IMG/VR virus record: IMGVR_UViG_2713897190_000002
Source of the DNA: a virus
Lineage: Duplodnaviria; Heunggongvirae; Uroviricota; Caudoviricetes
Reading direction: 5' to 3' (one strand)
DNA length: 38,367 nucleotides
In this document: positions 1 to 19,144 of the stretch, one piece after another
Numbering within the stretch: the stretch's first letter is position 1
Layout: the number at the start of each line of letters is the position of its first letter
Program-made: the position numbers and the translations under genes
Notes under the pieces: model-generated
Told to the model about the DNA's origin: nothing
The model's database searches: none
What the model saw: only the letters and a program-made list of their open reading frames with translations

Positions 1-91
1 CACAACATCCGAGGACAGCAACACCCGATACTTTTTCCTGGCTTCCAGCAACGGGGTTTCTTCCTCCGTTGCATATACAGCTCACCTTTTT

Positions 92-385
92 TCACCCACG
101 ATTAACCAACAGCCAGACCAGCAGACACGCCACCACCGGCACAGCAAAATCCATCAGGCTTGCCACATCCCAAGCTCGCGGATCAAAACCGCCCCACCAC
201 GGCATATTCATTCGCTTGCCATGCCCGAACATTTCAATCCAGCGATATTCTGCCTGGGTATGTTCACGCGCAATGAAGAACGTACAACCGGCTATCGCTC
301 CGTAAGCCCAGTTTCCGGTAAAAAGACCAACCAGTATCTGCGCAGCCACAGCACAAAGCGCATGAAGTAAGGGGCTTATATCCAT
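92..385 (-). CDS. hypothetical small membrane protein (97 aa), last gene of the tail fiber cluster
   Basis: ORF with ATG start and a strong Shine-Dalgarno (AAGGAGG) upstream; two or three hydrophobic segments in the translation; no homolog recognised. Confidence 0.5.
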   Translation of the reverse strand: MDISPLLHALCAVAAQILVGLFTGNWAYGAIAGCTFFIAREHTQAEYRWIEMFGHGKRMNMPWWGGFDPRAWDVASLMDFAVPVVACLLVWLLVNRG

Positions 386-397
386 TATTTCCTCCTT

Positions 398-676
398 TCA
401 GCTCCATTCCCGAAGCGGTGTTTCCAGCTCCACGACATAATCAGAGAATACAGAAACATCAAACAAGTCATCAAGAATGCGAATGTTGACAAAATAACCG
501 TCATTCCGGACACAGACAGGTTCTCCCTCTTCTGTTACCCCTGTTTCTGTGTAGGTGAAACCAATTTCATCGACTAACAGTTTATTCTGGAGGTCTTCAT
601 CCTCCTCCCAGTCAAGAGATGACAGGAAGGCCTTAAACTGCAGTTTGTCATGAAACTTCAAAGTTAAATCTTTCAT
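398..676 (-). CDS. hypothetical acidic protein (92 aa), translationally coupled to the tail fiber gene
   Basis: ATG overlaps the stop of the upstream tail fiber ORF (ATGA arrangement); acidic translation; possibly a fiber chaperone or accessory protein, not recognised. Confidence 0.45.
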   Translation of the reverse strand: MKDLTLKFHDKLQFKAFLSSLDWEEDEDLQNKLLVDEIGFTYTETGVTEEGEPVCVRNDGYFVNIRILDDLFDVSVFSDYVVELETPLREWS

Positions 677-2733
677 ACGACCTCTTTTAATTGCCTGTCA
701 TTTAATTCTTTATGCCATATGCGGAAATTGCGAATATGGCCAAACAGATGTCGTTCTCCAGTATTCGTCTGCCCTCCAAATCGGATATTTTTATCAGCGG
801 TCACACCATTATATTCACAATAAACTTCATTAACCGCTTTACCATTTGTCACCACATGAAAGTGACCATCAGCTTTTGCAATACATCCAAATGTGGTTTT
901 CTCTGCAAATACATCTGTCGCTGCGCTATTAACATACAAGCCTGAAGGGTTTGACAGACTCATATATAACTTACCACTACCTCTGTTGATTGCTGCAATT
1001 GCTGATTGCCCGGTATTGGCTGCTGCTATATCCCACACGCGGGGTGCGGCGTTTGGTGCAATATCCCAGTTTTTATGAATCTCAAGTAAAAAAGTAAATG
1101 GTAACTTATAAAGATTATTTCTGGTGGGGATACTAACCAAATCACTGGCTCTTGTCGTTGCGCTGCCTCCTGAAATAATAAATGATGATACACACGGCCC
1201 ATTCTCTACTTGTGGGGTGGCAAGATAAATATAGTCACCAGATACTGTTGCCCCACCCCGCTCAGGAGAATACTGTATCTGAGAGCCTATTTTTAACTCA
1301 CCATCAATTGCCTGAATCGTTGCCTCTGCAAAAATCCAGCCTGTGGTCTTATCCTTCCTGACTCGTGCCGTAATTCTGCCGGCAGCCCCACCTGTCATAT
1401 TAATTTCAAGCGTTTGCGTATCAATGTACGCATCGCCAAGAAAAGTTGTTGCACTACCATCATACTTATCAAACCGTATACGTAACCTTACCTGTCGTTC
1501 TGTTTTAAAACGGCATGAGGTTGTCACGTACTTGTTATCGCCTGAGACATCAACTGACTTTGTTGCAGCAATTGATGCCATATTAATAGCCGAAGTTTGC
1601 CCAACCAGAGAATCGTTGCAGACAAACTTTCCATAAGTAAAACCAAAACTATCTGTCCCGGTTTCGGGCACATCCATGTTTGATGACTTCCCCCAGCTGG
1701 CTGGACTTTCCGAATTGAGCATGTAGTTCGTTCTTTGTCCCTCAATAAGCAGGCCATCACACTCAAATCGCGGCTCATTAATTTCCGCCGTTTTCAGTTC
1801 GCCAGATTTGTTGATATATGTTGCCGTTGATGCGCGACTGAAATTAACCTGTTTATCACTGGCGACCTGAACCACATCGTCACCAATAGCTATTTTTTTA
1901 TAGCCCGGAGAAAAACCCGCAATCATATCCAGTGAATCGTTAAACGGTATCCACACATCAGGCAGCGGCGGCACTATATTCGCATAGGGCTCTGCAGTCA
2001 CTTCCGCTGCGACTTCTGCGCGGTCTGCCGCCTTTTCAGCCCGTGTCGCTGCCGACAGAGCCTCATCCTTTTTCTGCCCGGCCTTTGTTGCGTCTGCTGC
2101 GGCCTCCCGCGCTTTTGTGGTGGCGACTCCGGCATTTTCAGCGGCTGACTCTGCATTACGGCGGGAAGCCTCTTCACTGTCTGCGGAGGCTTCTTCTGAC
2201 GCACGGGCATTTGTCTCTGAACGTTCTGCCGCTGTTGCTGCGTTTTGTGCGGCTGTTTTTGAAGAAGCTGCCGCTTTCGCGCTGTTACCTGCATTCGTCT
2301 CTGATGTTTTCGCCGCATTCCTGGACGATGCCGCTGCTGTTTCTGATTTCTTTGCTGCCGCTGCGCTCTGAGAGGCGGCTTCAGCGTTGCGTGCCACCTC
2401 TTCCACCATCTTTTCAAAACGATACAGTGCCTCCGGACGAACATCATCTTCTGTTGCAGCGCCCAGAAAATCATTCAATGTCCCCGGCTTAGAATCCTCA
2501 TACACGGTGATGGCCCCGGCATGTGAAGGCGGAAAACCTTCAACCAGCAGGATAACGCTGTACTGGCCATACTCGACATCCATGCTGTAACGTCCGGCTT
2601 CATCCGGATTTTCTGAGGCCACCGTGTTCACCACAACCGTGGTGCTGTTACGTTTTGCTTTGAGCTGAATGGTGCAGTTCTGTATCGGTTTTCCTGCACC
2701 GTCTTTCAGCACGCCTGAAATCTGTACTGCCAT
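673..2733 (-). CDS. tail fiber protein with Ala/Ser-rich repeat region
   Basis: Long ORF directly downstream of J; N-terminus MAVQISGVLKDGAGKPIQNCTIQLKA resembles lambdoid prophage tail fiber proteins; long Ala-rich low-complexity stretch. Start set at the internal ATG with GGAG upstream; the track ORF begins 2 codons earlier at GTG (2739). Confidence 0.8.
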   Translation of the reverse strand: MAVQISGVLKDGAGKPIQNCTIQLKAKRNSTTVVVNTVASENPDEAGRYSMDVEYGQYSVILLVEGFPPSHAGAITVYEDSKPGTLNDFLGAATEDDVRPEALYRFEKMVEEVARNAEAASQSAAAAKKSETAAASSRNAAKTSETNAGNSAKAAASSKTAAQNAATAAERSETNARASEEASADSEEASRRNAESAAENAGVATTKAREAAADATKAGQKKDEALSAATRAEKAADRAEVAAEVTAEPYANIVPPLPDVWIPFNDSLDMIAGFSPGYKKIAIGDDVVQVASDKQVNFSRASTATYINKSGELKTAEINEPRFECDGLLIEGQRTNYMLNSESPASWGKSSNMDVPETGTDSFGFTYGKFVCNDSLVGQTSAINMASIAATKSVDVSGDNKYVTTSCRFKTERQVRLRIRFDKYDGSATTFLGDAYIDTQTLEINMTGGAAGRITARVRKDKTTGWIFAEATIQAIDGELKIGSQIQYSPERGGATVSGDYIYLATPQVENGPCVSSFIISGGSATTRASDLVSIPTRNNLYKLPFTFLLEIHKNWDIAPNAAPRVWDIAAANTGQSAIAAINRGSGKLYMSLSNPSGLYVNSAATDVFAEKTTFGCIAKADGHFHVVTNGKAVNEVYCEYNGVTADKNIRFGGQTNTGERHLFGHIRNFRIWHKELNDRQLKEVV

Positions 2734-2744
2734 ATTCACTCCAC

Positions 2745-2772
2745 AAATAAAAAAGGCGCCATTTCTGGCGCC
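2745..2772 (-). terminator. rho-independent terminator after J (tJ-like)
   Basis: On the - strand, GC hairpin GGCGCCAGAAATGGCGCC followed by TTTTTTATTT immediately after the J stop codon. Confidence 0.6.
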
Positions 2773-2791
2773 CGTATCTGGGTTATAAAAT

Positions 2792-5700
2792 TCAACTGAT
2801 ACTGATACCGGCTGTAGATTTCTTCATCACAACAACAAGAAGGTCGCTGATACTGGTCGTTGGCGTCCAGTTATTAGCACCATATGAAGAAACATTGAAA
2901 GTCAGGGTGACATGGCCGTGTCCGGCAGGCATATCAATGACTGATGAAAATACCCTGCTGACATCCGTCGCGGGTTGCTGAAAGATTTCCTGTCCGTTCT
3001 TCAGTACCTGCAGCTTACAGGTTGAATACCAGTATGACTGTTGGTTGTTGCTGTTGAAGTTTTCATGCTTACCCCCACGAAACAGAACGGGGGGGACTAC
3101 TATCTGACGGTCAAAAGCCTGGTCATCGTACACAGTGACCGTTATTGTACCGCTGGCATAACTGCCATTTCTCGGAAAGGCTTTTCCCACCGTTTTGACA
3201 ATATCACCTTCAATCTGGTTAGCTGACAGTTTTCCCAGAATCCGACAGTTCTGATTAATCGTGACGTTGTTGAGCGTCCCGGAGTTCGCGTTCACGTTAC
3301 CGCTGATATCCGCATTTTTCGCAGAAAGTCGACCATCAGGTGTCAGTGAAAACGTTGGGGGATTGCCACCGCTGGTAATGGTGGGAGCCGTCAGATATTT
3401 CAGGAACACTTCGTTCATGAATATCTGATCGCCCTGCCCAACAAACATCGGCTTTGTGTTGCCATTCGCAGGATTAATCATCGCAATCCTGTCCGCCGCC
3501 AGCAGCACCTGACTCTGCATACCGTCAGGAGTATTCTCAACACCGGCACCAATACCCGCGATATAAAGGCGTCCGTCCTGCATCTGCTGCAGCTTCACAG
3601 CCCACATGCTGTTCAGGTTATTATTTGTATCAACCTGAACCTTCTGTATCTGCTGGATCGCTGCACTCTGGTCTTCCAGTTTCTTATTGACGGTCTGCGT
3701 GATTTCATTGCTGACACCCGTAATGGACGTCCTGATTTCAGCCAGGTCAGGCGCAAGCTGACCGTTATCAATCTGCGTCCACAACTCCTGAGCCAGATGG
3801 GTTTTCCCTATCTCTCCTTTGAAAAAATTCAGATAGCCGGATGCATCATCACTCGGCTGGCCAACAGCCTCCACAAATGCCGATTTGCCAACGGTGTTCA
3901 CACTGCGGATGTAAAAATAATAATCATGGCCCGGTTTGATATTGATACTGGCGGCTATCCAGTACAGCGCCGTGCCAAGATAGCGTGCTGTGGTTTCAAC
4001 CTGCCTGATATCCGCAATCCGCTTTTCCGAGAACCAGAACTCAAACTGTACCGTCGGATCATAAACCGCAAGATGCGGCGTGGCGGTTATCTGAAAATAC
4101 CCCGGTGTCAGCTCAATCTGCGACGGCGCTGCCGGTGCGGCAATCCGGAACGATACCGATGCCGGATCGCCCTGCTGCCCCCACGCATTTACCGCCCGGA
4201 CTGTCAGCCTGTAGTTCCCCAGCGCCAGTTGCCTGAAGCGGTATGTGGTTTCCGTCGTCCGGGCCGTGCTGACCAGCCGCTCACTGCCGTCATCCGCTGC
4301 CACGGTCAGGCGAAGCATAAAGCTCACCCCCTTCACCACCTTCGGCGTGTCCCAGCGCGCCAGCACCTGATATTCCCCGCTGTCTGCGGTGACTTCGGCA
4401 GTCAGGTGCTGCACCGCTGGCGGCGTGACACCATTCACCGTGCCGCTCTGGTCGCCGTCAAAGTGCGCCCCGTTATCCACGATGGCCTCTTTTTCCGGTA
4501 CATGCTGCACGGCAGTGATGGCATACGTGCCGTCATCGTTCTCACGGATACTCACACAGCGGAACAGGCGCTGGCGCAACGTTGGCAACTTCAGCCCCCA
4601 CACGCTGTATTCTGCAACGCCGTCAGGAACACGGCTCACTTTTACCTTCACGCCGTCGGTGACGGACTGGACCTCCACGCTGACCGGATTCCCCTGTCCG
4701 TCAGCCAGGCTTATCAGCGTGGTGCCGGAGGATGGCAGCGTGATTTCACGGTCGAGCGTCAGTGTCCGCGTCTGGTTGTTCACCGCCAGCACGCGCCCGC
4801 CGATGCTGATCCCCGCATAGTCATCATCACAGATTTCAATGACATCGCCCGGTACATGGCGAAGCCCTTCTGCACCCACGCTGAAGTCCACGGTCTGCGT
4901 TTCCAGCAGCTCCGTTTTAATCAGCCACAGCCCGGCGCGGTGTGCCTGCCCCCGGCTGGTACAGCCAAAGGCATCCATCTTCGTGACGTTACGACCGTAA
5001 CGGGCAATGGCCTGCGTGTCCTCCACAAGCTCTGTCGCCGTCTCCCAGCCGTTATCCGGGTCAATCCAGTTCACCTCAACGGCATTATGGCGGTCTTTCA
5101 GGGCGCTGAAGCTGTAGCGGAACGGCGCGCCATCATCCGGCATCACCACATTACTGCGGTTATAGGTCCACACCTTATCCGACGGTCGGTCCTGCACGAA
5201 TGTCAGCGTCTGCCCGTTCCATACCGGCATACAGCGCATCGCCGAGCAAAAATCACTGAGCACATCCCACGCCTTGCGCTGTGTGGTCAGGTACGCATTA
5301 CAGGTGATGCGCGGCTCCGTGCCGCCAAAGCCGTCCGGCACTGACTGGTCGCAATTCTGGCCGATGACATACAGCGCCCATTTATCCACATCTGCCGCAC
5401 CAAGACGTTTCCCCATGCCGTAGCGCGGATGGGTCAGCATATCCCACAGACACCAGGCCATGTTGTTGCTGTATGCTGGCTTAAACGTTCCGTCCCAGAT
5501 ACCGCTGTATTGCCGCGTCTGCGGGTTATAGTTCGACGGCACCTGCAGAATGCGCCCGCGAAGATGATAATTACGGCTCACCTGCTGGCTGCCGAACTGC
5601 TCCGAGTCCACCTGTACGCCGACCAGTGCCGTGTTCGGGTAGCACTGTTTCACATCGATGATTTCGGTGTATGACGACCAGAGCGTTTTGTTCTGCAACT

Positions 5701-6274
5701 GGTCTGTGGTGCTGTCCGGCGTCATCCTGCGCATCCGGATATTAAACGGGCGCGGCGGCAGGTTATCCACCACCACCGAGGCCAGATACTGCGACGTGGT
5801 TTTGCCCTTAATGGTGATGTCTTTTTCCGTCACCCAGCCACCGTTACGTTGAATCTGAACCAGCAGGCGGACTTCCGATGGATTCCTGTCCCCCTTTGAG
5901 GTGGTTTCCACCAGTGCCTGCACGCCGAAAGTAAAACGCAGACGGTCAATGTTTGCCGACGTGATGGTCCGGGTGATCGGCGTGTCATATTTCACTTCTG
6001 TACCGAGCACCGTCTCGGAGCCGGAGGATTCAAATCCCTCCGGCGGTGTCTGCTCCTGCTCACCGGCCCGGAACACCACCGTGACGCCGAATATATTGGT
6101 ATTCCCCTCACTGTCCAGCACCGGCGTACTGTTCAGCAGCACGCTTTTTAATCCATCCACCGGACCTTCAACCGGCCCTTCGCTGATGGCGTCTATCACG
6201 CTCAGCATCTGGGATGATTTCAGGTTGTCCTTCGCTTCGCGCGGGGTATGCCCCTTACTGCTGCCTTTACCCAT
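2792..6274 (-). CDS. J: tail tip host specificity protein J
   Basis: 1160 aa; N-terminus [20 protein letters not shown] and long internal stretches match lambda gpJ as recalled; position after I matches lambda order. Confidence 0.95.
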
Positions 6275-6334
6275 TCCTCATGCTCCATAAACGATAAAAC
6301 CGCCCGGAGGCGGTTTCACATAAAACATTTTGCA

Positions 6335-7006
6335 TCAGCGACCAATCACCACAACCTGACCACCATCCCCTTCGTCTGCCGTGCTGATCTCCTGAGAAAC
6401 CACGCGTGACCCCACGCGCATTTCACCGTACAGAACCGGCAGAACATTGCCCTGGGCAACCATGTTATCCAGTGAGGAGAAATAGGTGTTCTGTTTGCCG
6501 TTATCCGTTGTCTGTGTACGGGGAGTTCTGGCTTTCGGTGCCAGCATCTGCGCCACACCACCGAGCACCATACTGGCACCGAGAGAAAACAGGATGCCGG
6601 TCATACCACCGGCCCCAATGGCTGCCCCCCATGCTGCAAGGGTGGCTCCGGCGGTAAAGAATGATCCGGCAATGGCGGCAGCCCCCAGGACAATCTGGAA
6701 TACGCCACCTGACTTGGCCCCGGCGACTCTGGGAACAATATGAATCACAGCGCCATCAGGCAGAGTCTCATGTAACTGCGCCGTTAACCCGGACGTGCTG
6801 ACGTCCCGCCCGGCAATCCGTACCTGATACCAGCCGTCGCTCAGTTTCTGACGAAACACCGGGAGCTGTGTGGCCAGTGCGCGGATGGCTTCAGCCCCCG
6901 TTTTCACACGAAGGTCGATGCGGCGGCCAAATCGTTGTAAATCCCCGTAAAGGCAGATGCGCGCCATGCCCGGTGACGCCAGAGGGAGTGTGTGCGTCGC
7001 TGCCAT
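6335..7006 (-). CDS. I: tail assembly protein I
   Basis: 223 aa, MAATHTLPLASPGMARICLYGDLQRFGRR matches lambda gpI; Gly/Ala-rich hydrophobic C-terminal half. Confidence 0.9.
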   Translation of the reverse strand: MAATHTLPLASPGMARICLYGDLQRFGRRIDLRVKTGAEAIRALATQLPVFRQKLSDGWYQVRIAGRDVSTSGLTAQLHETLPDGAVIHIVPRVAGAKSGGVFQIVLGAAAIAGSFFTAGATLAAWGAAIGAGGMTGILFSLGASMVLGGVAQMLAPKARTPRTQTTDNGKQNTYFSSLDNMVAQGNVLPVLYGEMRVGSRVVSQEISTADEGDGGQVVVIGR

Positions 7007-7647
7007 TTGTCGGTATACCTCTCTCGTTTACTCAGTTGTTCAGGAATATGGTGCAGCAGCTCGCCGTCACCACAGTAAATAGCGGCATGATTCGGCACCG
7101 ATGAACCAAAGCAGCACAGCAGCACATCGCCCGGCTGCGCCGCTGACAACGGCACCTGATACAGCCCTGTGGCCTCCAGATTATCAAGATAGAGATTCTG
7201 GCCGTTACGCCACCAGTCATCCTCACGATGAAAGTCCGGCATCTCAATCCCCGCCAGATGGTAAGCGTCCCGGAACAGCGTGTAACAGTCCGTCACCCCG
7301 TGCTCAAAGCGCCGCCCGGTGAGATGCGGCACACAGCGGAACTTATGAATCGCCCCCCGGCAGACCAGCCACCACGGCAAATCACTCTGCACCTGCAGCC
7401 GCCGGTCGGCCTCACTCAGCCAGGGCAGACCACCGGGATGACTGTGGACCAGCGCCACAATCTCACCCTGCATCTCTGCCTGCAGCCAGTCCTCCGGAGC
7501 CATCCGGAAATACGCCTCCGGCTCACCGGAGATATTCACGCAGGGAAAATATCTTTCCCCCTCCGGCGCTCTCACCACGAAGCCGCACGACTCCGCTGGC
7601 GCACATCGCCGGGCATGCGCCAGAATCGCTGATTCTGTCTCTGTCAT
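6904..7647 (-). CDS. K: tail assembly protein K (JAB/MPN plus NlpC/P60-like)
   Basis: MTETESAILAHARRCAPAESCGFVV with an HSHP metalloprotease-type motif, as in lambda gpK; the ORF overlaps the start of I by about 100 nt. Confidence 0.85.
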   Translation of the reverse strand: MTETESAILAHARRCAPAESCGFVVRAPEGERYFPCVNISGEPEAYFRMAPEDWLQAEMQGEIVALVHSHPGGLPWLSEADRRLQVQSDLPWWLVCRGAIHKFRCVPHLTGRRFEHGVTDCYTLFRDAYHLAGIEMPDFHREDDWWRNGQNLYLDNLEATGLYQVPLSAAQPGDVLLCCFGSSVPNHAAIYCGDGELLHHIPEQLSKRERYTDKWQRRTHSLWRHRAWRASAFTGIYNDLAAASTFV

Positions 7648-7652
7648 GGGAT

Positions 7653-8351
7653 TTACTGCGAAAGTTTGTTAATGGAAAGGAAGCCGCCAAAGTTGCCGAC
7701 GTTATTGCGAAACTTACAGCCGCTCAGGCATTTGCTGCATTTATCCTTCGTGATATCGGAAGTCGGCTGATCATATTCATCCGCGACCGCCGGACCGTGA
7801 TAACCGCACTCATCACCGCGATAGGTCCAGGTGCAGGTATTAGCCAGCATGATGCGCCCCGGAAAAACGGCACCATCCGTTTCCGTCGGTGTGGACAGTA
7901 CAAAGGAGGCACTGACCGCACTCAGTTCGCTGCACTGCTCGATGCGCCAGCGGCTGATCACCTCCTGCTCCGGATCGGCGTCGCTGTTTCCGTTGACGAA
8001 GTTCACCGCATCCAGAAAACGGGCGTAAACCTTACGCCTGACCACCGTTCCGCCGACCAGACTCTGCAGATCTTCCACCATCCCGGTGACCATACCGTAC
8101 AGGTTAGAAACCGTCAGCGTGGGGCGCGTACTGGTGCCTTTGCCATTCAGTTCAAAACTACTCCCCTGAATGGGATACGGCTGATACTGTCGCCCCTGCC
8201 AGGTGACCGGCTCACCTTTTTCGTTCTGCTCATTACAGAAAAAATAACGTTCTCCACCGACCTCTGTCAGATCGATTTCCCAGAGCACCACGCTGGCCGA
8301 CTGCTCCGCACGGGTGCATTCATTCAATGTTTCCTGCCGGATATCCTGCAT
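7653..8351 (-). CDS. L: minor tail protein L
   Basis: 232 aa, same length and position as lambda gpL; ATG overlaps the stop of M. Confidence 0.9.
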   Translation of the reverse strand: MQDIRQETLNECTRAEQSASVVLWEIDLTEVGGERYFFCNEQNEKGEPVTWQGRQYQPYPIQGSSFELNGKGTSTRPTLTVSNLYGMVTGMVEDLQSLVGGTVVRRKVYARFLDAVNFVNGNSDADPEQEVISRWRIEQCSELSAVSASFVLSTPTETDGAVFPGRIMLANTCTWTYRGDECGYHGPAVADEYDQPTSDITKDKCSKCLSGCKFRNNVGNFGGFLSINKLSQ

Positions 8352-8680
8352 CAGTTCACCACCTGTTCAAACTCTGCGCTGAACTCAACACGCAGCATAC
8401 TGACCCGCGACGACCATTTTGCGCAGGTCACCTTTATCTGCCTGTAACCATAAGGCGGCGTCCACAGAAAGGCCTTCCAGCCCCCGTGCTCAGCCAGAAA
8501 CGACTCCAGCGCCGTGGCCTCCTCACGGGAGACAGACAGCGTCACGCTGTACGTTTTCAGGTCAGCGTTCAGCCCGGCAGGCGCACGCTGGGAATAGCCA
8601 TCACCAAAGCGCACCTCCCTGACGGAAGGAGCCGATGTCACATCCATCCCGGGTTTCACTTTCCAGCGGAAGGTTTTCAT
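8351..8680 (-). CDS. M: minor tail protein M
   Basis: 109 aa, same length and position as lambda gpM. Confidence 0.9.
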   Translation of the reverse strand: MKTFRWKVKPGMDVTSAPSVREVRFGDGYSQRAPAGLNADLKTYSVTLSVSREEATALESFLAEHGGWKAFLWTPPYGYRQIKVTCAKWSSRVSMLRVEFSAEFEQVVN

Positions 8681-11238
8681 CGTCCACCTCCGGAGAACAG
8701 ACCACCATCGCGCATCTGTGCCTGGATTTCATCACGGGCACCCTTGCGGGCCATGTCATACACCGCCTTCATCATCTGTGGACCTGGCAGACCATTCGTA
8801 CCGTCGTTCTGAATCACCACGTTGTTGTTCTGCTCAAACCTGATACCCTCTGAACGCCGCATTTGCGCCGGACTTCCGGTGCCACCGACATAACCGCCGG
8901 TGGCATAGCCGCGCATCAGCCGGTAGAGATTTCCCACGCCAATCCGGCTGGTTGCCTCCTTCGTGAAGACAAATTCACCACGGTGAACAATCCCCGCTGG
9001 CTCATATTTGCCGCCGGTTCCCGTAAATCCTCCGGTTGCAAAATGGAGTTTCGCCGCAGCGGCCTGAATGGCTGTACCGCCTGACGCGGATGCGCCGCCA
9101 CCAACAGCCCCGCCAATAGCGCTGCCGATACTCCCGACAATCCCCACCATTGCCTGCTTAAGCAGAATTTCTGTCATCATGGACAGCACGGAACGGGTGA
9201 AGCTGCGCCAGTTCTGTTCACTGCCGGTCAGCATCGCCGCCATATTCTGCGCAATACCATCAAAGGTCTGCGTGGCAGCACTTTTAACCTGCGACATACT
9301 GTCCGTGGCACTCTCTTCCCACTCACTCCAGCCGGACTTCAGGCCTGCCATCCAGTTCCCGCGAAGCAGGTCTTCAGCCGCCCAGGTCTTTTTCTGCTCT
9401 GACATGACGTTATTCAGCGCCAGAGGATTATCGCCATACTGTTCCTTCAGGCGCTGTTCCGTGGCTTCCCGTTCTGCCTGCCGGTCAGTCAGCCCCCGGC
9501 TTTTCGCATCAATAGCGGCCCGTTTTGCCCGTTGCTGCTGTGCGAATTTATCCGCCTGCTGCGCCAGCGCGTTCAGGCGCTCCTGATACGTAACCTTGTC
9601 GCCAAGTGCAGCCAGCTGGCGTTTGTACTCCAGCGTCTCATCTTTATGCGCCAGCAGGGATTTCTCCTGTGCAGACAGCTGGCGACGTTGCGCCGCCTCC
9701 TCCAGTACCGCGAACTGACTCTCCGCCTTCCACAAATCCCGGCGCTGCTGGCTGATTTTCTCATTTGCTCCGGCATGCTTCTCCAGCGTCCGGAGTTCAG
9801 CCTGAAGCGTCAGCAGGGCAGCATGAGCACTGTCTTCCTGACGATCGCCCGCAGACACCTTCACGCCGGACTGTTTCGGCTTTTTCAGCGTCGCTTCATA
9901 ATCCTTTTTCGCCGCCGCCATCAGCGTGTTGTAATCTGCCTGCAGGATTTTCCCGTCTTTCAGTGCCTTGTTCAGTTCTTCCTGACGGGCGGTATATTTC
10001 TCCAGCGGTGTCTGCAGCCGTTCGTAAGCCTTCTGCGCCTCTTCGGTATATTTCAGCCGTGATGCTTCGGTATCGCTCTGCTGCTGCGCATTTTTGTCCT
10101 GTTGACTCTGCTGTTCAGCCTTCTTTCGGGCGGCTTCAAGCGCAAGACGGGCCTTTTCACGATCATCCCAGTAACGCGCCCGCGCTTCATCGTTAACAAA
10201 ATAATCATCCTTGCGCAGATTCCAGATGTCGTCCGCTTTCTTAAACGCAGCCTCTGCCTTAATCAGCATCTCCTGAGCGGTATCAGGACGACCAATATCC
10301 AGCACCGCATCCCACATGGATTTGAATGCCCGTGCTGTCCTGTCTGCCCAGGTTTCCAGCGTGCCCATGTTCTCTTTCAGGCGTCGGGTCTGGTCATCAA
10401 ACCCTTTCGTTGCGGCCTCGTTCGCCGCCTGCAATGCCCCGGATTCATCGCCGGAACGCTGCAACTGAGCAACATACGCAATCTGCTCCGCCGTTACGTT
10501 ATGGAACTGGCGCGCCATCGCCGTCAGCCCCGACGTCGGGTCAGTGGTCAGCTTCCCGAAGGCTTCAGCGACCTTGTCCACCTCCACGCCGGATGCAGAG
10601 GAGAAACGCGCCACACTCTGGCTGATGGATGCAATCTGAGCCTCACCGCTTACTCCCGCCTTAACCAGTGCGCTGAGTGACTCGCTGGTCTGGTTAAACG
10701 TCAGCCCTGCCGCCTGCCCGGCTCTGGACAGGACCAGCATACGATCTGCCGTCAGACCCGACTGATTGCCGGAAAGGACCAGCGTTTTGTTGAAATCGGA
10801 CAGGGTTGAGTTACCCTGATACCAGGCATACGCCAGCGCACCGGTCGCCACCGCCAGCGAGGTGGCCCCGACCATCGGCAGGGTGATCGCACCGGCAAGC
10901 CCCCGGAACATGGGGATCATCCCGCCGAAGGAGTCCTTAACCTGACCACCCTGTTGCAGCAGGATCAGCCACGGGCTTTGCCCGCCTGCAAGCTGCGTGG
11001 CCACGTCGGTGAACTGTGCAGGCAGCATACGCATGGCGGCTTTATACTGCCCGACGGAAATCCCCGCTTTCTGTGCAGCCAGCGCCTGTCGGCTCAGCGA
11101 CTGTTCAACGACTGCCGCTGTTTTTTTCGCATCACTTTCCGTACCGGAAAAATGACGCCTGACTCTGGCCATCTGCTCGTCAAATCTGGCCGCATCCAGA
11201 CTTAAATCAACGACCAGATCGCCTACCGGTTCAGCCAT
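8677..11238 (-). CDS. H: tail tape measure protein H
   Basis: 853 aa (same as lambda gpH); coiled-coil-rich middle, Gly-rich C-terminus; lies between G-T and M. Confidence 0.92.
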   Translation of the reverse strand: MAEPVGDLVVDLSLDAARFDEQMARVRRHFSGTESDAKKTAAVVEQSLSRQALAAQKAGISVGQYKAAMRMLPAQFTDVATQLAGGQSPWLILLQQGGQVKDSFGGMIPMFRGLAGAITLPMVGATSLAVATGALAYAWYQGNSTLSDFNKTLVLSGNQSGLTADRMLVLSRAGQAAGLTFNQTSESLSALVKAGVSGEAQIASISQSVARFSSASGVEVDKVAEAFGKLTTDPTSGLTAMARQFHNVTAEQIAYVAQLQRSGDESGALQAANEAATKGFDDQTRRLKENMGTLETWADRTARAFKSMWDAVLDIGRPDTAQEMLIKAEAAFKKADDIWNLRKDDYFVNDEARARYWDDREKARLALEAARKKAEQQSQQDKNAQQQSDTEASRLKYTEEAQKAYERLQTPLEKYTARQEELNKALKDGKILQADYNTLMAAAKKDYEATLKKPKQSGVKVSAGDRQEDSAHAALLTLQAELRTLEKHAGANEKISQQRRDLWKAESQFAVLEEAAQRRQLSAQEKSLLAHKDETLEYKRQLAALGDKVTYQERLNALAQQADKFAQQQRAKRAAIDAKSRGLTDRQAEREATEQRLKEQYGDNPLALNNVMSEQKKTWAAEDLLRGNWMAGLKSGWSEWEESATDSMSQVKSAATQTFDGIAQNMAAMLTGSEQNWRSFTRSVLSMMTEILLKQAMVGIVGSIGSAIGGAVGGGASASGGTAIQAAAAKLHFATGGFTGTGGKYEPAGIVHRGEFVFTKEATSRIGVGNLYRLMRGYATGGYVGGTGSPAQMRRSEGIRFEQNNNVVIQNDGTNGLPGPQMMKAVYDMARKGARDEIQAQMRDGGLFSGGGR

Positions 11239-11665
11239 ACCGGACTCCTCCTGCGATCCCTTCTGATACTGTCATCAGCATTACGTCATCCTCCGTCATG
11301 CCCGCCATATCCGGGGAAGCGGGGATAACTTCATTTCCGTCCGGGTCAAAGCGGACGCCTCCGGTAAGCCCTGCCGCTTTCTGCATCAGCACATCATCTT
11401 CAGGCTCTTCGTCATCCTCACGCCGGTTCAGCAAACTGAAATCCAGCGGATGCATATCCGGATCGCTGAAAAACAGGCTGAGCACAGTGTACGTCAGCCC
11501 GGAAAAGTGCATATCCAGCAGAACATCATGAAAATAATGGGTACTGTAAAAGCGGTGCCAGTCGGCATACTCCGTGGATGACATCCCGGCAAGCATGGCG
11601 CGCCAGTCAGGTCGCCCCATCTCTCGCGCCAGTTTCAGGGCAAAACTCAGCTCACCGTCGAACAC
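11231..11665 (-). CDS. T: tail assembly chaperone T frame, expressed as a G-T fusion by -1 frameshift
   Basis: 144-aa reading frame overlapping the 3' end of G in the -1 frame, as in lambda; the annotated first codon is only the frame boundary (GTG), not an independent start. Confidence 0.8.
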   Translation of the reverse strand: MFDGELSFALKLAREMGRPDWRAMLAGMSSTEYADWHRFYSTHYFHDVLLDMHFSGLTYTVLSLFFSDPDMHPLDFSLLNRREDDEEPEDDVLMQKAAGLTGGVRFDPDGNEVIPASPDMAGMTEDDVMLMTVSEGIAGGVRYG

Positions 11666-12069
11666 TTTCCCGCAGAAACAGGCTCTGCAGGCCCGGAGTC
11701 CTCTGCCTGGTCAGGGGCATCATTCACCACAAACCCATACATACCGGACAGCCGGTACACCACGTTTTCAGCATGAGAAATTGCCTCCGCGGGCCAGGTG
11801 GTAAGCACTTCCTGCTCAATCTGTTTAACGGCTTCATTCATGGAAGGCTGCTTTGTCTTCTGCGGATGGTTATGCCACAGGGACATCGCCACCACAAAAG
11901 CACCGGTTCTGATGGCGTCTTCCACAGTAACCTGCCGGTTGCTGTCTGACTCCGCCTGTTCTGCCTGCTGTTTCATCAGGGCGAGATGCTCAATACGCTG
12001 CAGGGCTGACAGTTCAGAAAGCGTGACGGTCACGCCGTTATGTTCAAATGATTCGGTTTTCAGGAACAT
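11647..12069 (-). CDS. G: tail assembly chaperone G
   Basis: 140 aa, same length and position as lambda gpG; followed by the slippery site and T frame. Confidence 0.85.
   Translation of the reverse strand: MFLKTESFEHNGVTVTLSELSALQRIEHLALMKQQAEQAESDSNRQVTVEDAIRTGAFVVAMSLWHNHPQKTKQPSMNEAVKQIEQEVLTTWPAEAISHAENVVYRLSGMYGFVVNDAPDQAEDSGPAEPVSAGKCSTVS
11665..11671 (-). other. G-T programmed -1 ribosomal frameshift slippery site (GGGAAAG)
   Basis: Heptamer GGGAAAG on the - strand at the end of G, where the T frame opens; same motif as the lambda G/GT slip site. Confidence 0.8.
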
Positions 12070-14586: not shown

Positions 14587-15615
14587 TTATTTCACCTGTA
14601 CCACCACAAACTCATCCGGGTCCGGCAACACCATCAGCGGCGCGGACTGCGTCATGGTAAATTCACGGGCGGGATCCCCTACCGTCAGCCAGTGTTTCGG
14701 ATAACGGGAAGAGGCCACCACACCTTCGGACAACGCCTGAGCATCCTGAATGGCACCGTAACAACGGATCCCATCTGCAGCAGTATTCCCCAGAACCAGC
14801 ATGCCATCTGGAAGATAACGTTTTTCGATACCGTCTTCTGCTATATAAGACGTTTTCGCCACCACAATGGCCAGATCGCCGTAATACCCCTTGAAGGACA
14901 CCACTGCGCCCAGATCTTTCACTGCCGTTTCGAGTTGAGAATTTGAACCGCGACGGGTATCCAGTTTTTCGCGGAACAGCTTAAAACCATTCAGAAGACG
15001 CCAGACGGTACCGTCCATAATGGCAATATTCACAAGACCGCTGGCCAGGTCGCAGTAGAGGTCAATATCATGTGTAGGATCGAACGTGTCACGATCCTGT
15101 TTTGACCACTCCTTACCACTACCCTGAGTGATGTTATTCTTCGTCGACCTGCCAAAATCGACCTCAATTTTCTCGAACTGGTCTCCTTCCATGGTGTATT
15201 TGCCATACAACACAGCATTTACCGCCTGCATTTCTTCCACCTGGACAATCGCGTGCTCTTCCTGTTTGAGGTTATCGGTAATGATACGCAGACGGCGGTA
15301 AGCCGGATCATTCAGTTGAGATGGATCTTCACCAGGAAGGCGCTCAACCGCCTGCTGGTAATTAAATTCGTGTTTCGGCTTGACGTAGCCCGGACGCAAC
15401 ACGCGGGTTTCACCACCACGATGACGCAGCACTTTTCCTTCAACAACCGGGGAGACATAGGCCGCCACCGGCGTTTTTCCGGTAATTTTGTCCAGCATCA
15501 CCTCTTCGGTATGGAAATTCACCGTACGGCGGAAAAACAGCTCCAGAAACAGCGCACGAAATTTAACTTTTTGTTCGGTATAACCGAGTAACTGGCGGGT
15601 CGTAAACAATCCCAT
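14587..15615 (-). CDS. E: major capsid protein E
   Basis: 342 aa (lambda gpE 341 aa); lies between D and FI. Confidence 0.92.
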   Translation of the reverse strand: MGLFTTRQLLGYTEQKVKFRALFLELFFRRTVNFHTEEVMLDKITGKTPVAAYVSPVVEGKVLRHRGGETRVLRPGYVKPKHEFNYQQAVERLPGEDPSQLNDPAYRRLRIITDNLKQEEHAIVQVEEMQAVNAVLYGKYTMEGDQFEKIEVDFGRSTKNNITQGSGKEWSKQDRDTFDPTHDIDLYCDLASGLVNIAIMDGTVWRLLNGFKLFREKLDTRRGSNSQLETAVKDLGAVVSFKGYYGDLAIVVAKTSYIAEDGIEKRYLPDGMLVLGNTAADGIRCYGAIQDAQALSEGVVASSRYPKHWLTVGDPAREFTMTQSAPLMVLPDPDEFVVVQVK

Positions 15616-15672: not shown

Positions 15673-16020
15673 TTACGGCAGCGCCGCGTGACTCAGGGCA
15701 CTGCCAGCAAAGGCGTTGGCCTTTTTGTGTTCATCCACACTTTCAGGCCAGTGGATTGCCTCCGTCGCAAAGGTTCCCGACTTGTAATACGTCAGCGCCG
15801 TCTCTGTGCCTTCAAGCGGCAGTACCAGTATGCCAACCGCACTACCGGCTTTCTGTCCGTCCCAGACCACCAGTTTCCCGGTGGCTTCATCCAGCATCAG
15901 GGGCGTCAGTGCCGGTGTTGGCGAGGAAATCCCGCTGCTGCCTGTGGCGGTATGAGCCGGATCATTACCGGCAAAAATACGTACTTCCGCACGCTGTTCA
16001 GTGATGGTTTTCGTCACCAT
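15673..16020 (-). CDS. D: head decoration protein D
   Basis: 115 aa; motifs DPAHTAT, TPLMLD, YKSGTF, FAG shared with lambda gpD. Confidence 0.85.
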   Translation of the reverse strand: MVTKTITEQRAEVRIFAGNDPAHTATGSSGISSPTPALTPLMLDEATGKLVVWDGQKAGSAVGILVLPLEGTETALTYYKSGTFATEAIHWPESVDEHKKANAFAGSALSHAALP

Positions 16021-16056: not shown

Positions 16057-17562
16057 TCATGGCATGGCCATGAGCATTTTCACGTCCGCATCACCGTCTG
16101 CTGACGTCTGTGCCACGCCACCCTGTACCGCTGCCGGTGAATGGTTCGCCATGAAATGTTCAAACATGGCGGTTGTGGATGCAGAGACCGGTTCTGCCTT
16201 ACCTGATCCCGCAGCCAGCACAGCCCGGGCGCTCTCCACTGTCATTCCCGGGCAGGCAGCCAGCTGTTCAGCCTGCGCCTCAGCCCCTTTTGCCTCATCC
16301 AGTGCCATGATCTGATCACGGAGTGATGGTCCGGCATCCGCCTGCGGTGAAGCAGCCAGGATCGGGCGGGCTTTTTCCACCGTCATCTCCGGCATCGCCG
16401 CCAGCGTTGCCGCCAGTTGTTCACGACCGTTCGCTTCTTCACACGCCATAATGCGATCGGCTTCACTCTGCGTGGATGCCACCGGCTGCTGCGGTGCCGC
16501 CGCGGCCAGAATCGCCCGGGCCTGTTCAACGCTCATGCCCTGTTGTCCTGCCAGCATCGTGGCAAGCTGTTCACGTCCTTTCGCTTCCTGGCATGTCAGG
16601 ATCCCCATCACTCGCTGGTTCTCCTGCGCGGCGGCTTCCGTTGCAGTTAATTGCGGCATAGTGCCTCCTCTGACATTACTGTTCAGCGCCGTGGCCATCA
16701 CACTGATGGCATCCGACGCATTGATTAATTCATCCGCCAGCCCGGCCTCAATGCCGGACTGACCTTCAAAAACGGCAGCCTCTGTTCCCGTGACGGCATC
16801 AACAGACAGACCGGTATACATCGCCACTTTTTCGGCAAACATCCGGCGCGCCGCATCAATCCGCTGCTGCATGTCCTGGCGAACCTCTGCCGGCAACGCT
16901 TCAAACTGATTGCCATCCACCTTGTGCGCCCCTGAGTAAATCAGCGTGATATCCACACCGGCCTGCGCCAGATGACCGGCATAGCTGACATGGCTCATCA
17001 TCACGCCAATGGAGCCGATACGGGATGTCTGGGTAACCAGCCGTCGGGAGCAGGCCGACGCCAGCAGCATGGCTGCAGAACAGGCCGTGTCATTGCACAG
17101 TGCCCAGACCGGCTTCTGCTGACGGAGGCGGTAAATCATGTCAGCGCAGTCAAACGCGCCGGCGGCCTGCCCGCCCGGACTGTCAATGTCCAGCAGTACG
17201 CCCCGCACCTGGCTATCCGCCATTGCCTGCTGAAGACAGGCGACAATGCCGTCATAGCCTGTCATTCCGGAAAATGGCCGCATACCACCCAGCCGGTGCA
17301 CCAGCGTGCCGGTCACCGGCAGTACAGCAATACCGTTCACCACCCGGTAAACACGGGCCGGTCGTTTACCTCCGGCCATGTACTCGTCCGTTTCAGCCAG
17401 CATTCCGGGAGCATCAAACTGTACCTGCTGTTGTGGTACCGAAAGACTTGCTGCCCCCATCTCGCGCCCGAGCGCGCAAAAGAAAACCCGCGCATAGGCG
17501 GGCTCCAGAAGCAGCGGTTCATTGAATGCTGCGGCAATAATGTGTGAAAGATTACGTCTCAC
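16057..17562 (-). CDS. C: prohead protease / scaffold C (S49-ClpP-like) with C-terminal tandem repeat modules
   Basis: N-terminus ...AFNEPLLLEPAYARVFFCAL resembles lambda gpC; 501 aa versus 439 in lambda; GTG start with GGAGA Shine-Dalgarno; C-terminal part holds three or four helical repeats of about 35-40 aa. Confidence 0.85.
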   Translation of the reverse strand: MRRNLSHIIAAAFNEPLLLEPAYARVFFCALGREMGAASLSVPQQQVQFDAPGMLAETDEYMAGGKRPARVYRVVNGIAVLPVTGTLVHRLGGMRPFSGMTGYDGIVACLQQAMADSQVRGVLLDIDSPGGQAAGAFDCADMIYRLRQQKPVWALCNDTACSAAMLLASACSRRLVTQTSRIGSIGVMMSHVSYAGHLAQAGVDITLIYSGAHKVDGNQFEALPAEVRQDMQQRIDAARRMFAEKVAMYTGLSVDAVTGTEAAVFEGQSGIEAGLADELINASDAISVMATALNSNVRGGTMPQLTATEAAAQENQRVMGILTCQEAKGREQLATMLAGQQGMSVEQARAILAAAAPQQPVASTQSEADRIMACEEANGREQLAATLAAMPEMTVEKARPILAASPQADAGPSLRDQIMALDEAKGAEAQAEQLAACPGMTVESARAVLAAGSGKAEPVSASTTAMFEHFMANHSPAAVQGGVAQTSADGDADVKMLMAMP

Positions 17563-19144
17563 GTGGTGTTGTCTCCTCTTCCGGCCTACGACTCTCCGCT
17601 ATCTGCTGCTGATACGCCTGCTCTATCCACACCGGACGTGAGAGTCCGGCTTTTTGCCGCTCAGCAGATTCCCTGACCTGCTGGCGGAAAATGTCCTGAT
17701 AATCCTCGCCCATCAGCGCCAGCTCTTTCTCATACGTGCTCAGTCCGGCCTCAATGCGCATCACTGATTCCTGGACTTCCTTGAGCCCGTCAATGGCCAT
17801 TCTTCCGGCACCAATCCACTCTGCCCGTGACCAGGCTGATCGCGCCTGATAAAAATCAAAACGTGCCCGTGGCGGACGAATAATCCCCCGAAGAAGTGCC
17901 TCTTCCAGCCAGCAGGAAAACATCTGCGTGGCCAGCCGGGCCGCAATAAATTTTCGCCGCCCCATAAAATAGCGCCACGACTCATTGGCGGAGGCGCGGG
18001 CACTTGAGTAACTGACCTTCGAGTAATCACGGGACAACTGTTCGTAGGAAACGCCAAGACCGGCGGCGATATACCGCAGCAGCGCCTGTTCAAGCGCAGA
18101 AAATCCATTGTCTGAATCCTGCGCAGTCTGTAGTTTCAGATCATCACCAGGGAAAAGGTGCGGAATTTTGACACCGCCCAGTGTCACGTTATTCGTGTCA
18201 TACCAGCTGGAAAACTTCTCCAGAATATTAATAAGCGGATTATCCTTCTGCTCCTGTGGCGCGCCGGCGATATATTCAAAGGCCTTTTCGGTATCAAGTT
18301 CACTTTCAATCGTCGCTGCATACATCGCCTTCACTATGGCCGACTGAAGCTGTGTTGCCTGCAGGGAATCGAGCATCTTCAGCCGTTCCATGACGCTGTA
18401 AAACTGATTAGCCCCACGGGTCTGCCCGTCCTCCACCGGCTCGAAAATATGCAGCATGGCCGGACGCCCGGTGGGAAGTTCACGCGGGATCCGTTCCCAT
18501 CGTCCACTACCAGAGAACGGAAAATCATCCTCACAGATATGGTACGCGACGGCACGGCCATATCGATCGACCTCCACACCGGCCCGCAGAAAACGGTTCC
18601 CCATACCGTGTCCAGGCGTGTCCACCCGTTTCGGACTCACGGCTTTAAAACGCGTACGGAATAACTGCGTGGTTTCCGTATCCCAGACCGGCTGCACAAA
18701 GATTTCGCCGTTAAACGCATGAACGCCCACACCTTCACGGATAAATTCCGTGAACGTGCGTTTTCCTTCCACGTCGATCTCGCCAAACATCCCTTCGGCG
18801 TATTCCGACCAGGCCGCCTCCACCTCATCGACAAAGCTTTTTGCTGCGGTCTCCCGCATCCCCAGCCAGCGCCAGTTCGGACGGTAGCTGATCAGAAACA
18901 TATGCCCGACAATGTGATCCTTATGCAGAGCCACCGCATTAGCCGCTATTCCGTTATTGCGCACCAGATCATCTGCCCGGGCATTCCCCAGACGCAACGC
19001 GGGCAGCAGGGCCGCATCGGCACTCTGCGCCGGTGGCAACCACTCAGCCATTTGCCCGCCAAATCCTGCACCGCCCCCGTTGTAGCTGAGACTCTCACGA
19101 AGCGGAACGCCGTTCACATCAATCAGGACAGGCGTTCGTTTCAT
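17552..19144 (-). CDS. B: portal protein B
   Basis: Start set at the ATG overlapping the W stop (MKRTPVLIDVNGVPL...), about 530 aa (lambda gpB 533 aa); the track ORF begins 10 codons upstream at GTG. Confidence 0.9.
   Translation of the reverse strand: MKRTPVLIDVNGVPLRESLSYNGGGAGFGGQMAEWLPPAQSADAALLPALRLGNARADDLVRNNGIAANAVALHKDHIVGHMFLISYRPNWRWLGMRETAAKSFVDEVEAAWSEYAEGMFGEIDVEGKRTFTEFIREGVGVHAFNGEIFVQPVWDTETTQLFRTRFKAVSPKRVDTPGHGMGNRFLRAGVEVDRYGRAVAYHICEDDFPFSGSGRWERIPRELPTGRPAMLHIFEPVEDGQTRGANQFYSVMERLKMLDSLQATQLQSAIVKAMYAATIESELDTEKAFEYIAGAPQEQKDNPLINILEKFSSWYDTNNVTLGGVKIPHLFPGDDLKLQTAQDSDNGFSALEQALLRYIAAGLGVSYEQLSRDYSKVSYSSARASANESWRYFMGRRKFIAARLATQMFSCWLEEALLRGIIRPPRARFDFYQARSAWSRAEWIGAGRMAIDGLKEVQESVMRIEAGLSTYEKELALMGEDYQDIFRQQVRESAERQKAGLSRPVWIEQAYQQQIAESRRPEEETTPRET

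Follow-up and report, generated by a model that had tools for sequence, protein, structure and literature searches.

This analysis concerns a 38,367-nucleotide stretch of DNA from a virus of the Caudoviricetes (IMG/VR record IMGVR_UViG_2713897190_000002; hereafter the window, whose coordinates we use throughout), and in particular the repeats at the C-terminal end of its prohead protease/scaffold gene. This gene (16057-17562, minus strand, with a GTG start and the stop codon included) is the counterpart of gene 5 of phage 21 and a homolog of gene C of phage lambda, and it encodes a 501-residue S49 prohead protease with a C-terminal scaffold domain. We have very little doubt that the repeats are a triplicated scaffold module of the Nu3 type. 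The same three modules appear to form both the body of a 200-residue scaffolding protein and the C-terminal domain of the 501-residue protease. Comparison with relatives shows that lambda and most of the others carry one module, and that its in-frame triplication goes back to an ancestor of the phage-21 lineage. Each module is under constraint and is kept as protein. The role that we propose for the modules, as interaction units whose number sets the valency of the scaffold, has about an even chance of being right. Taken as a whole, modules and mechanism together are in our judgment the probable best explanation of the locus.

Three modules and a nested scaffold gene

The original prediction had described three to four divergent copies of a helical module of about 35-40 residues between 16200 and 16660, visible as DNA repeats of roughly 120 bp. 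Self-alignment of the protein finds a significant repeat in that place, and the span that had been named corresponds to the distance from the nested start codon at 16659 through the end of the third copy at 16195. The first copy (R1, residues 314-366; 16465-16623, on the minus strand like all the features of this gene) consists of the core ENQRVMGILTCQEAKGREQLATMLAGQQGMSVEQARAILAAAAPQQ and a Pro/Gln-rich linker, the second (R2, residues 367-413; 16324-16464) of EADRIMACEEANGREQLAATLAAMPEMTVEKARPILAASPQAD and a linker, and the third (R3, residues 414-456; 16195-16323) of LRDQIMALDEAKGAEAQAEQLAACPGMTVESARAVLAAGSGKA. Local BLOSUM62 scores are 101 for R1/R2, 97 for R2/R3 and 87 for R1/R3, compared with a mean of about 26 (standard deviation 5) in composition-preserving shuffles. 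This gives z = 11.6-15.3, and none of the 2000 shuffles came to the observed score. Sixteen columns are invariant in register across the three copies, and the consensus that we recomputed, E.DRIMAC.EAKGREQLA..LAA.PGMTVE.ARAILAA, agrees with the helical-module consensus first proposed. The conserved core has a length of 35-43 residues, as expected, and the start-to-start period is 53 and 47 residues (159 and 141 bp) rather than about 120 bp. The copies differ in character: R1 is the one that BLASTP pairs with the single module of lambda, R2 is hit by most of the natural deletions described below, and R3 is the most degenerate, having lost the family-conserved residues Arg16, Leu19 and Pro42.

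The remaining 45 residues (457-501; 16060-16194) form a non-repeat tail that has no similarity to the module and ends in the hydrophobic KMLMAMP. When this tail was tried as a fourth copy, it scored no higher than the shuffled mean against every copy. The tail is thus unlike the module and there are three copies, not four, so that the lower of the two numbers originally suggested is the one that holds. By eye, and with no statistics attached, the tail appears to correspond to the lambda tail that ends in DLLNTPV.

The repeats had been placed in the part of the gene that would also encode Nu3, and the internal start that this implies is present at residue 302. Here an AGGAGG precedes the ATG of Met302 (16659-16657), and among residues 225-335 this is the sole in-frame start with a strong Shine-Dalgarno sequence before it. 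The nested gene 6 (16057-16659, minus strand) is predicted to encode a 200-residue Nu3-type scaffolding protein that has its frame and its C-terminus in common with the protease. It is a coding sequence in both GenBank records of phage 21 (M81255 and OL657228), each of which gives it as 603 nt, in frame inside gene 5, with its own ribosome-binding site. The Shine-Dalgarno sequence GAGGAGG (16664-16670, minus strand) was read directly in the window and is the ribosome-binding site marked in those two records. The scaffold part of the protein matches phrog_8399 (head scaffolding protein) and phrog_8940 (capsid assembly protein), in three stretches.

The correspondence with phage 21 goes further. 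Our phage-identity figures cover the two stretches that were searched, which are the protease gene and window positions 1-12000. The DNA of the gene is 100% identical to phage ev017 and, over 1506 nt, 99.9% identical to M81255 and OL657228; positions 1-12000 are 100% identical to ev017 and 99.5% identical to phage 21. The phage 21 head-operon record M81255 contains three repeat_region features in gene 6, the Tri1, Tri and Tri3 boxes, each with the note "function unknown; putative". These boxes map to 16489-16592, 16342-16452 and 16198-16311 of the window, within R1, R2 and R3 respectively, and when translated they are exactly the three module cores. Genes 5 and 6 of phage 21 thus have essentially the same sequence as the locus described here, with Tri boxes, nested gene 6 and ribosome-binding site all coinciding, and we see no substantive difference between the two. 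The triplicated module is therefore already known and annotated, as the Tri boxes of phage 21, and the repeat in itself is a minor finding that has been in GenBank since the head-operon record. The boxes are not discussed in the literature that we searched; that search did not extend to the paper that is presumably the source of M81255, Smith & Feiss 1993 (Gene 126:1).

The comparison with lambda accounts for the size of the protein. Its identity to lambda C is 53% over amino acids which, together with the Peptidase_S49 match given below, bears out the assignment as a C homolog. Counted from the conserved internal start, the scaffold part has 200 residues here vs 131 in lambda, and the protease part 301 vs 308. 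The alignment shows one module in lambda, preceded by a linker that is 36 residues longer, and so the two extra modules, offset by the shorter linker, explain why the protein has 501 rather than 439 residues; the extra length had been attributed to extra copies from the start. The two systems are alike in gene order, in the internal Shine-Dalgarno sequence and ATG at the aligned site (caggaggg and the ATG of Met309, coordinate 5342, in lambda), in the module and in the similar tail, whereas lambda has a single module, a longer linker before it and a shorter scaffold part.

A side observation concerns the annotation of lambda itself. In RefSeq/GenBank (NC_001416) nu3 starts at Met239, at coordinate 5132, and encodes 201 residues (2333-2938 in our locus L001). 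The ATG of Met239 comes without a Shine-Dalgarno sequence, and its counterpart in the window is an ATT isoleucine codon (16857-16859). The annotation probably overstates Nu3 by 70 residues, and the conserved start would be Met309, which gives a protein of 131 residues.

Module family, age and natural variants

A profile built from the three copies matches 471 clusters (at 50% identity) with a library-wide E-value of 1e-3 or less, while a word-indexed search with the three-row module alignment returned 17 fragments only. Among the 150 best representatives of the family, 134 have a single copy, and the distance from the end of the last module to the C-terminus has a median of about 50 residues. 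The hosts of the module are either proteins of 350-850 residues, of which those examined are S49 fusions, or stand-alone calls of 110-200 residues. The family consensus, of roughly 42-43 residues, is R.RImgILaCeEAKGRE.LA..LA.tPGMTVE.AkaILAAAP, in which Arg3, Ile7, Glu12, Ala13, Gly15 and Arg16, and further Ala20, Leu23, Ala24, Ala34, Leu38 and Pro42, are conserved in at least 93% of the members. The module is the most conserved element, and the conserved core, of the lambda-type scaffolds.

This core lacks a Pfam model, and no NCBIfam family matches the 200-residue scaffold part. A module profile made from 40 sequences found no solved relative in the PDB, where designed helical repeat proteins were its only matches, and a phmmer search of the whole protein against the PDB returned SppA and ClpP only, over the protease part. 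AlphaFold2 (AF2) models suggest helical modules parted by low-confidence linkers. Foldseek comparison of both models with the PDB gave best E-values of 1.6-4 and none below 1, which is a weak negative given the low confidence of the models. A helix-hairpin-helix (HHH) assignment was tried and rejected: the HHH family matches R3 with an E-value of 0.095 and 13 bits vs a cutoff of 24, and HHH_5 matches one of 40 diverse members with an E-value of 0.044.

At the DNA level the repeat is weak. In codon register the copies are 49-62% identical, the longest exact run in register is 8 nt, and the longest exact repeat in the module region is 9 nt. Tandem Repeats Finder (TRF) reported nothing in the repeat region, and a DNA repeat finder applied to the region returned solely a 12-nt family with a spacing of 153 and 150 nt. 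For each pair of copies, 11-14 of the 19-25 identical residues are encoded by different codons. Given this weak DNA identity and the differing codons at identical residues, the repeat should be regarded as old and as kept in the form of protein. A tandem DNA repeat prone to homologous recombination is ruled out by the 49-62% identity, the short exact runs and the negative TRF result.

The triplication is ancient and stable. Three proteins with three copies, P0121, P0123 and P0124, represent separate 50%-identity clusters. R1 is 66-79% identical to R1 across them, and within one three-copy protein the copies are 54-60% identical to each other. This positional orthology implies that the triplication predates these lineages. 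Within the E. coli population, in a comparison that is uncorrected for phylogeny, the share of polymorphic sites is 28-45% for the module cores, 35% for the S49 core, 66% for the tail and 40-70% for the linkers, with linkers 1 and 2 at 57-70%. The scaffold-coding segment occurs at 2922 places in 1870 of the 5426 complete E. coli genomes, Nissle 1917 included, and the middle of R2 is intact at 2851 of these places (about 97%). Outside this lineage, a protein from a high-GC non-enteric relative (P0167, 198 residues) has two module copies that are 63% identical to each other and closer to each other than to any other copy; this looks like an independent duplication in another lineage.

Copy-number variants do exist, and we surveyed them in the best 120 clusters at 90% identity, with the bias that a protein search detects in-frame variants only. 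Two modules are found in 24 of these clusters, three in 93, four in two and six in one. The two-module forms have at least four different classes of R1/R2 junction, and the four-module forms, from two clusters, are 551 residues long. Another form of 482 residues, with about 2.5 modules, has a 19-residue deletion inside R2; judged by segment length it accounts for 64 clusters, and it is tallied with the three-module forms in the module count since a partial match to R2 remains. There are also several smaller in-frame indels of 4-29 residues. The longest protein, P0001 (657 residues, from a finished genome), contains a tandem duplication of 156 residues (468 bp) that begins where the protease domain ends (ELVNASDAIS...) and stops midway through R3, giving five full modules and one partial. 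In NZ_CP007136.1 (E. coli O145:H28 RM12581), probably the genome concerned, the gene region lies near 1149728-1150065. Two features annotated as S49 peptidase overlap this region in the sister strain RM13514.

The junctions of these variants sit at microhomologies of 5-8 bp. Locus L004 has cleanly lost 150 bp at GAAGCGAA, a match of 8 bp in register. L006 has a 153-bp deletion at CACCGCAG and L008 one of 57 bp at CTGGC(G/T)GC, and in L005 a segment of 150 bp is duplicated, its junction containing an N. In both L004 (two modules) and L005 (four modules) the capsid and decoration proteins are identical to those of the window, at 342/342 and 115/115 residues, and this is what bears on the original suggestion that repeat number could tune assembly. 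Every head gene called in L004 has the expected Pfam family and size; in L005 the large-terminase open reading frame (ORF) has 692 residues and no Pfam hit on record. A different picture is seen in L006/L007, from E. coli O157:H7 strain 7636 (CP038421, locus 5801-6789), which carry a two-module allele. Here the capsid gene is cut to 88 residues and fused directly to the gene for the major tail protein, and FI, FII, Z and U are missing. Both prophages are defective and are therefore uninformative on whether a two-module scaffold functions.

Among the complete genomes, the three types of two-module junction were found in 0, 1 and 1 genomes and the 57-bp deletion in 56, using junction probes of 38-42 nt whose halves are too short to seed and leaving out the four-module junction, which contains the N. 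As the variant junctions are this rare, the region does not appear to be a recombination hotspot; it would be better described as indel-tolerant, with occasional slippage at microhomologies. The expectation of repeats of about 120 bp that make the region recombinogenic is thus not sustained. The DNA similarity is weak, the copies are too diverged for ordinary homologous recombination, R2 is intact at 2851 of the 2922 loci, and the rare variants sit at microhomologies of 5-8 bp.

Two kinds of chimeric ORF were also observed, P0080 (721 residues) and P0084/P0085 (577 residues), which track the protein exactly up to ...ARAVLAAGSG, just past R3. Beyond this breakpoint, at about window position 16200, they run on into unrelated sequences that are tail-fibre-like by eye. 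A breakpoint common to chimeric ORFs of independent assemblies may mark a site of recombination or of misassembly.

Proposed role and competing readings

We propose that each module could stand on its own as a small helical unit whose conserved charged face consists of Arg3, Glu12, Arg16, Glu17 and Lys/Arg35, and that the units would be joined by disordered linkers rich in Pro, Gln and Ala. Through each unit the scaffold would interact with the major capsid protein, with other scaffold subunits, or with both, and a scaffold with three copies would be longer and multivalent. As part of the protease the modules would pull the attached enzyme into the assembling prohead, where it would later digest the scaffold. 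The alleles whose module number is 2, about 2.5 or 4 would come about at short microhomologies in register, by slippage or by illegitimate recombination, and not by homologous recombination. Lambda Nu3 has been reported to interact with Nu3 itself, C, the capsid protein E and the portal protein B (PMC3224144).

Other systems provide partial analogies. Nested protease/scaffold pairs with a common C-terminus include UL26/UL26.5 of herpes simplex virus and I/Z of phage Mu. In such pairs translation from an internal start in the same frame gives an abundant scaffold that is identical to the C-terminal domain of the protease, which is a way to co-assemble the two. The proteases of these pairs belong to families unrelated to the S49/SppA-like enzyme here, and we know of no comparable tandem module in either. 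Scaffold gp8 of phage P22 is a working analogy only: close to the C-terminus of this otherwise flexible protein sits a small helical unit whose basic residues are conserved. Its coat-binding helix-turn-helix differs in being a single domain, with no protease fusion and no tandem copies, and no sequence or fold relation to it was detected by the PDB sequence search or by Foldseek on the low-confidence models.

Several points weigh against the proposed role. The binding partners proposed for the module are putative. Expression from the Met302 start is likewise predicted, from the sequence and the GenBank annotation. The AF2 confidence is low, with a mean predicted local distance difference test (pLDDT) of 62-65 and a predicted template modelling (pTM) score of 0.24-0.31, and the runs disagree: the one made with no alignment gives a helix-turn-helix (pLDDT 65) and the one made with a 58-row alignment three short helices (pLDDT 62). 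Low pTM in both runs is what would be expected for a beads-on-a-string arrangement. Three copies do not seem to be obviously required, because the homologous 341-residue capsid protein of lambda assembles with one module and because the two- and four-module alleles adjoin a capsid protein identical to that of the window. Three residues conserved in the family are gone from R3. The two-module copies of O157:H7 lie in prophages with a truncated capsid gene.

The main competitor follows from some of the same observations. It supposes that we are looking at a tolerated expansion of a flexible region, in which the modules past the first are redundant padding that hardly affects assembly, if at all, and is kept by inheritance. 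The single module of lambda, the in-frame alleles of 2, about 2.5 and 4 modules, the several indels of 4-29 residues, the 57-bp deletion of R2 in 56 complete genomes and the residues lost from R3 would all fit this, as would the unchanged capsid protein beside the two- and four-module alleles, the former in an apparently intact head module. Lambda Nu3 is also called intrinsically disordered in the title of Medina et al. 2011, as cited in PMC9295703. Padding would, however, hardly be expected to keep the three-copy arrangement with positional orthology across separate 50%-identity clusters. Each core is also constrained to nearly the same degree as the protease core, and more strongly than linkers 1 and 2 and the tail. 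About 97% of the loci in complete genomes have an intact R2, and two-module junctions occur in 2 of the 5426 genomes only, one of them in defective prophages. We consider redundancy unlikely and prefer the reading in which each module contributes as an interaction unit.

Readings that do away with a protein module altogether fare much worse. The repeats might act at the level of DNA or RNA, as binding sites for a regulatory protein or as a recombination or packaging signal, and OL657228 does mark two matches to the CII motif (TTGYN6TTGY) in gene 6, which in the window stand at 16407-16420 and 16641-16654 on the plus strand. With 5 such motifs in the window vs 8.7 expected by chance, we judge these sites to be chance occurrences. 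The low DNA identity of the copies, the different codons behind most of their identical residues, the failure of TRF to find a DNA array, and the conservation of the module as protein in relatives that are 27-55% identical over the module-plus-tail region make a DNA-level role highly improbable. Still less credible is a chance similarity or low-complexity artefact of an Ala-rich sequence (23.5% Ala), for which the composition itself and the designed helical repeat proteins that are the only PDB matches of the module profile could be cited. This is refuted by the shuffle statistics, with 0 of 2000 composition-preserving shuffles near the observed scores and 16 invariant columns in register, and by the family-wide conservation, with the same motif recovered in 471 clusters. 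Chance and a DNA-level function are thus excluded for the repeat.

What the present analysis adds to the existing annotation is context. The repeated unit is the most conserved one in lambda-type scaffolds and has neither a domain model nor a structure, and its triplication is old and strongly retained, with rare alleles of fewer or more modules standing beside an unchanged capsid protein. We would tentatively extend the proposal to all lambda-type S49 protease/scaffold systems, in which the Tri module might be the interaction unit that binds the capsid protein or builds the scaffold lattice; this is possible, with the chances somewhat against it. If it is true, the phage-21 lineage offers a natural allelic series (2, about 2.5, 3 and 4 modules) in combination with an unchanged capsid protein, which could show the effects of scaffold valency or length on assembly fidelity and protease loading. 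The alleles themselves are an inexpensive way to study by experiment the poorly defined contact that the shell makes with lambda-like scaffolds and the protease tethered to them.

Protease domain and neighbouring genes

The protease gene lies in a head operon of the expected type, with the gene order portal, protease/scaffold, decoration, major capsid. The portal ORF is at 17552-19174, the decoration-protein ORF (115 residues) at 15673-16020 and the major capsid ORF (342 residues) at 14587-15615, and the Pfam families of these genes agree in homologous loci. The Peptidase_S49 catalytic domain covers residues 146-293 (16684-17127, minus strand), by its Pfam match (E-value 3.7e-35, 121.6 bits vs a gathering cutoff of 24.9) and by alignment with SppA, whose structures 3rst and 4kwb align to the protease part with E-values of about 5e-16. 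The whole protein matches phrog_53, head maturation protease, with an E-value of 2.8e-229. In the SppA alignment Ser162 (17077-17079) falls on the active-site serine. At what we take to be the position of the catalytic lysine of SppA, both this protein and lambda C have a tyrosine, Tyr209 here. Five residues further on is Lys214, which is conserved here as in lambda (YSGAHK, residues 209-214; 16921-16938), and the position of the general base may therefore differ between these phage S49 proteases and SppA.

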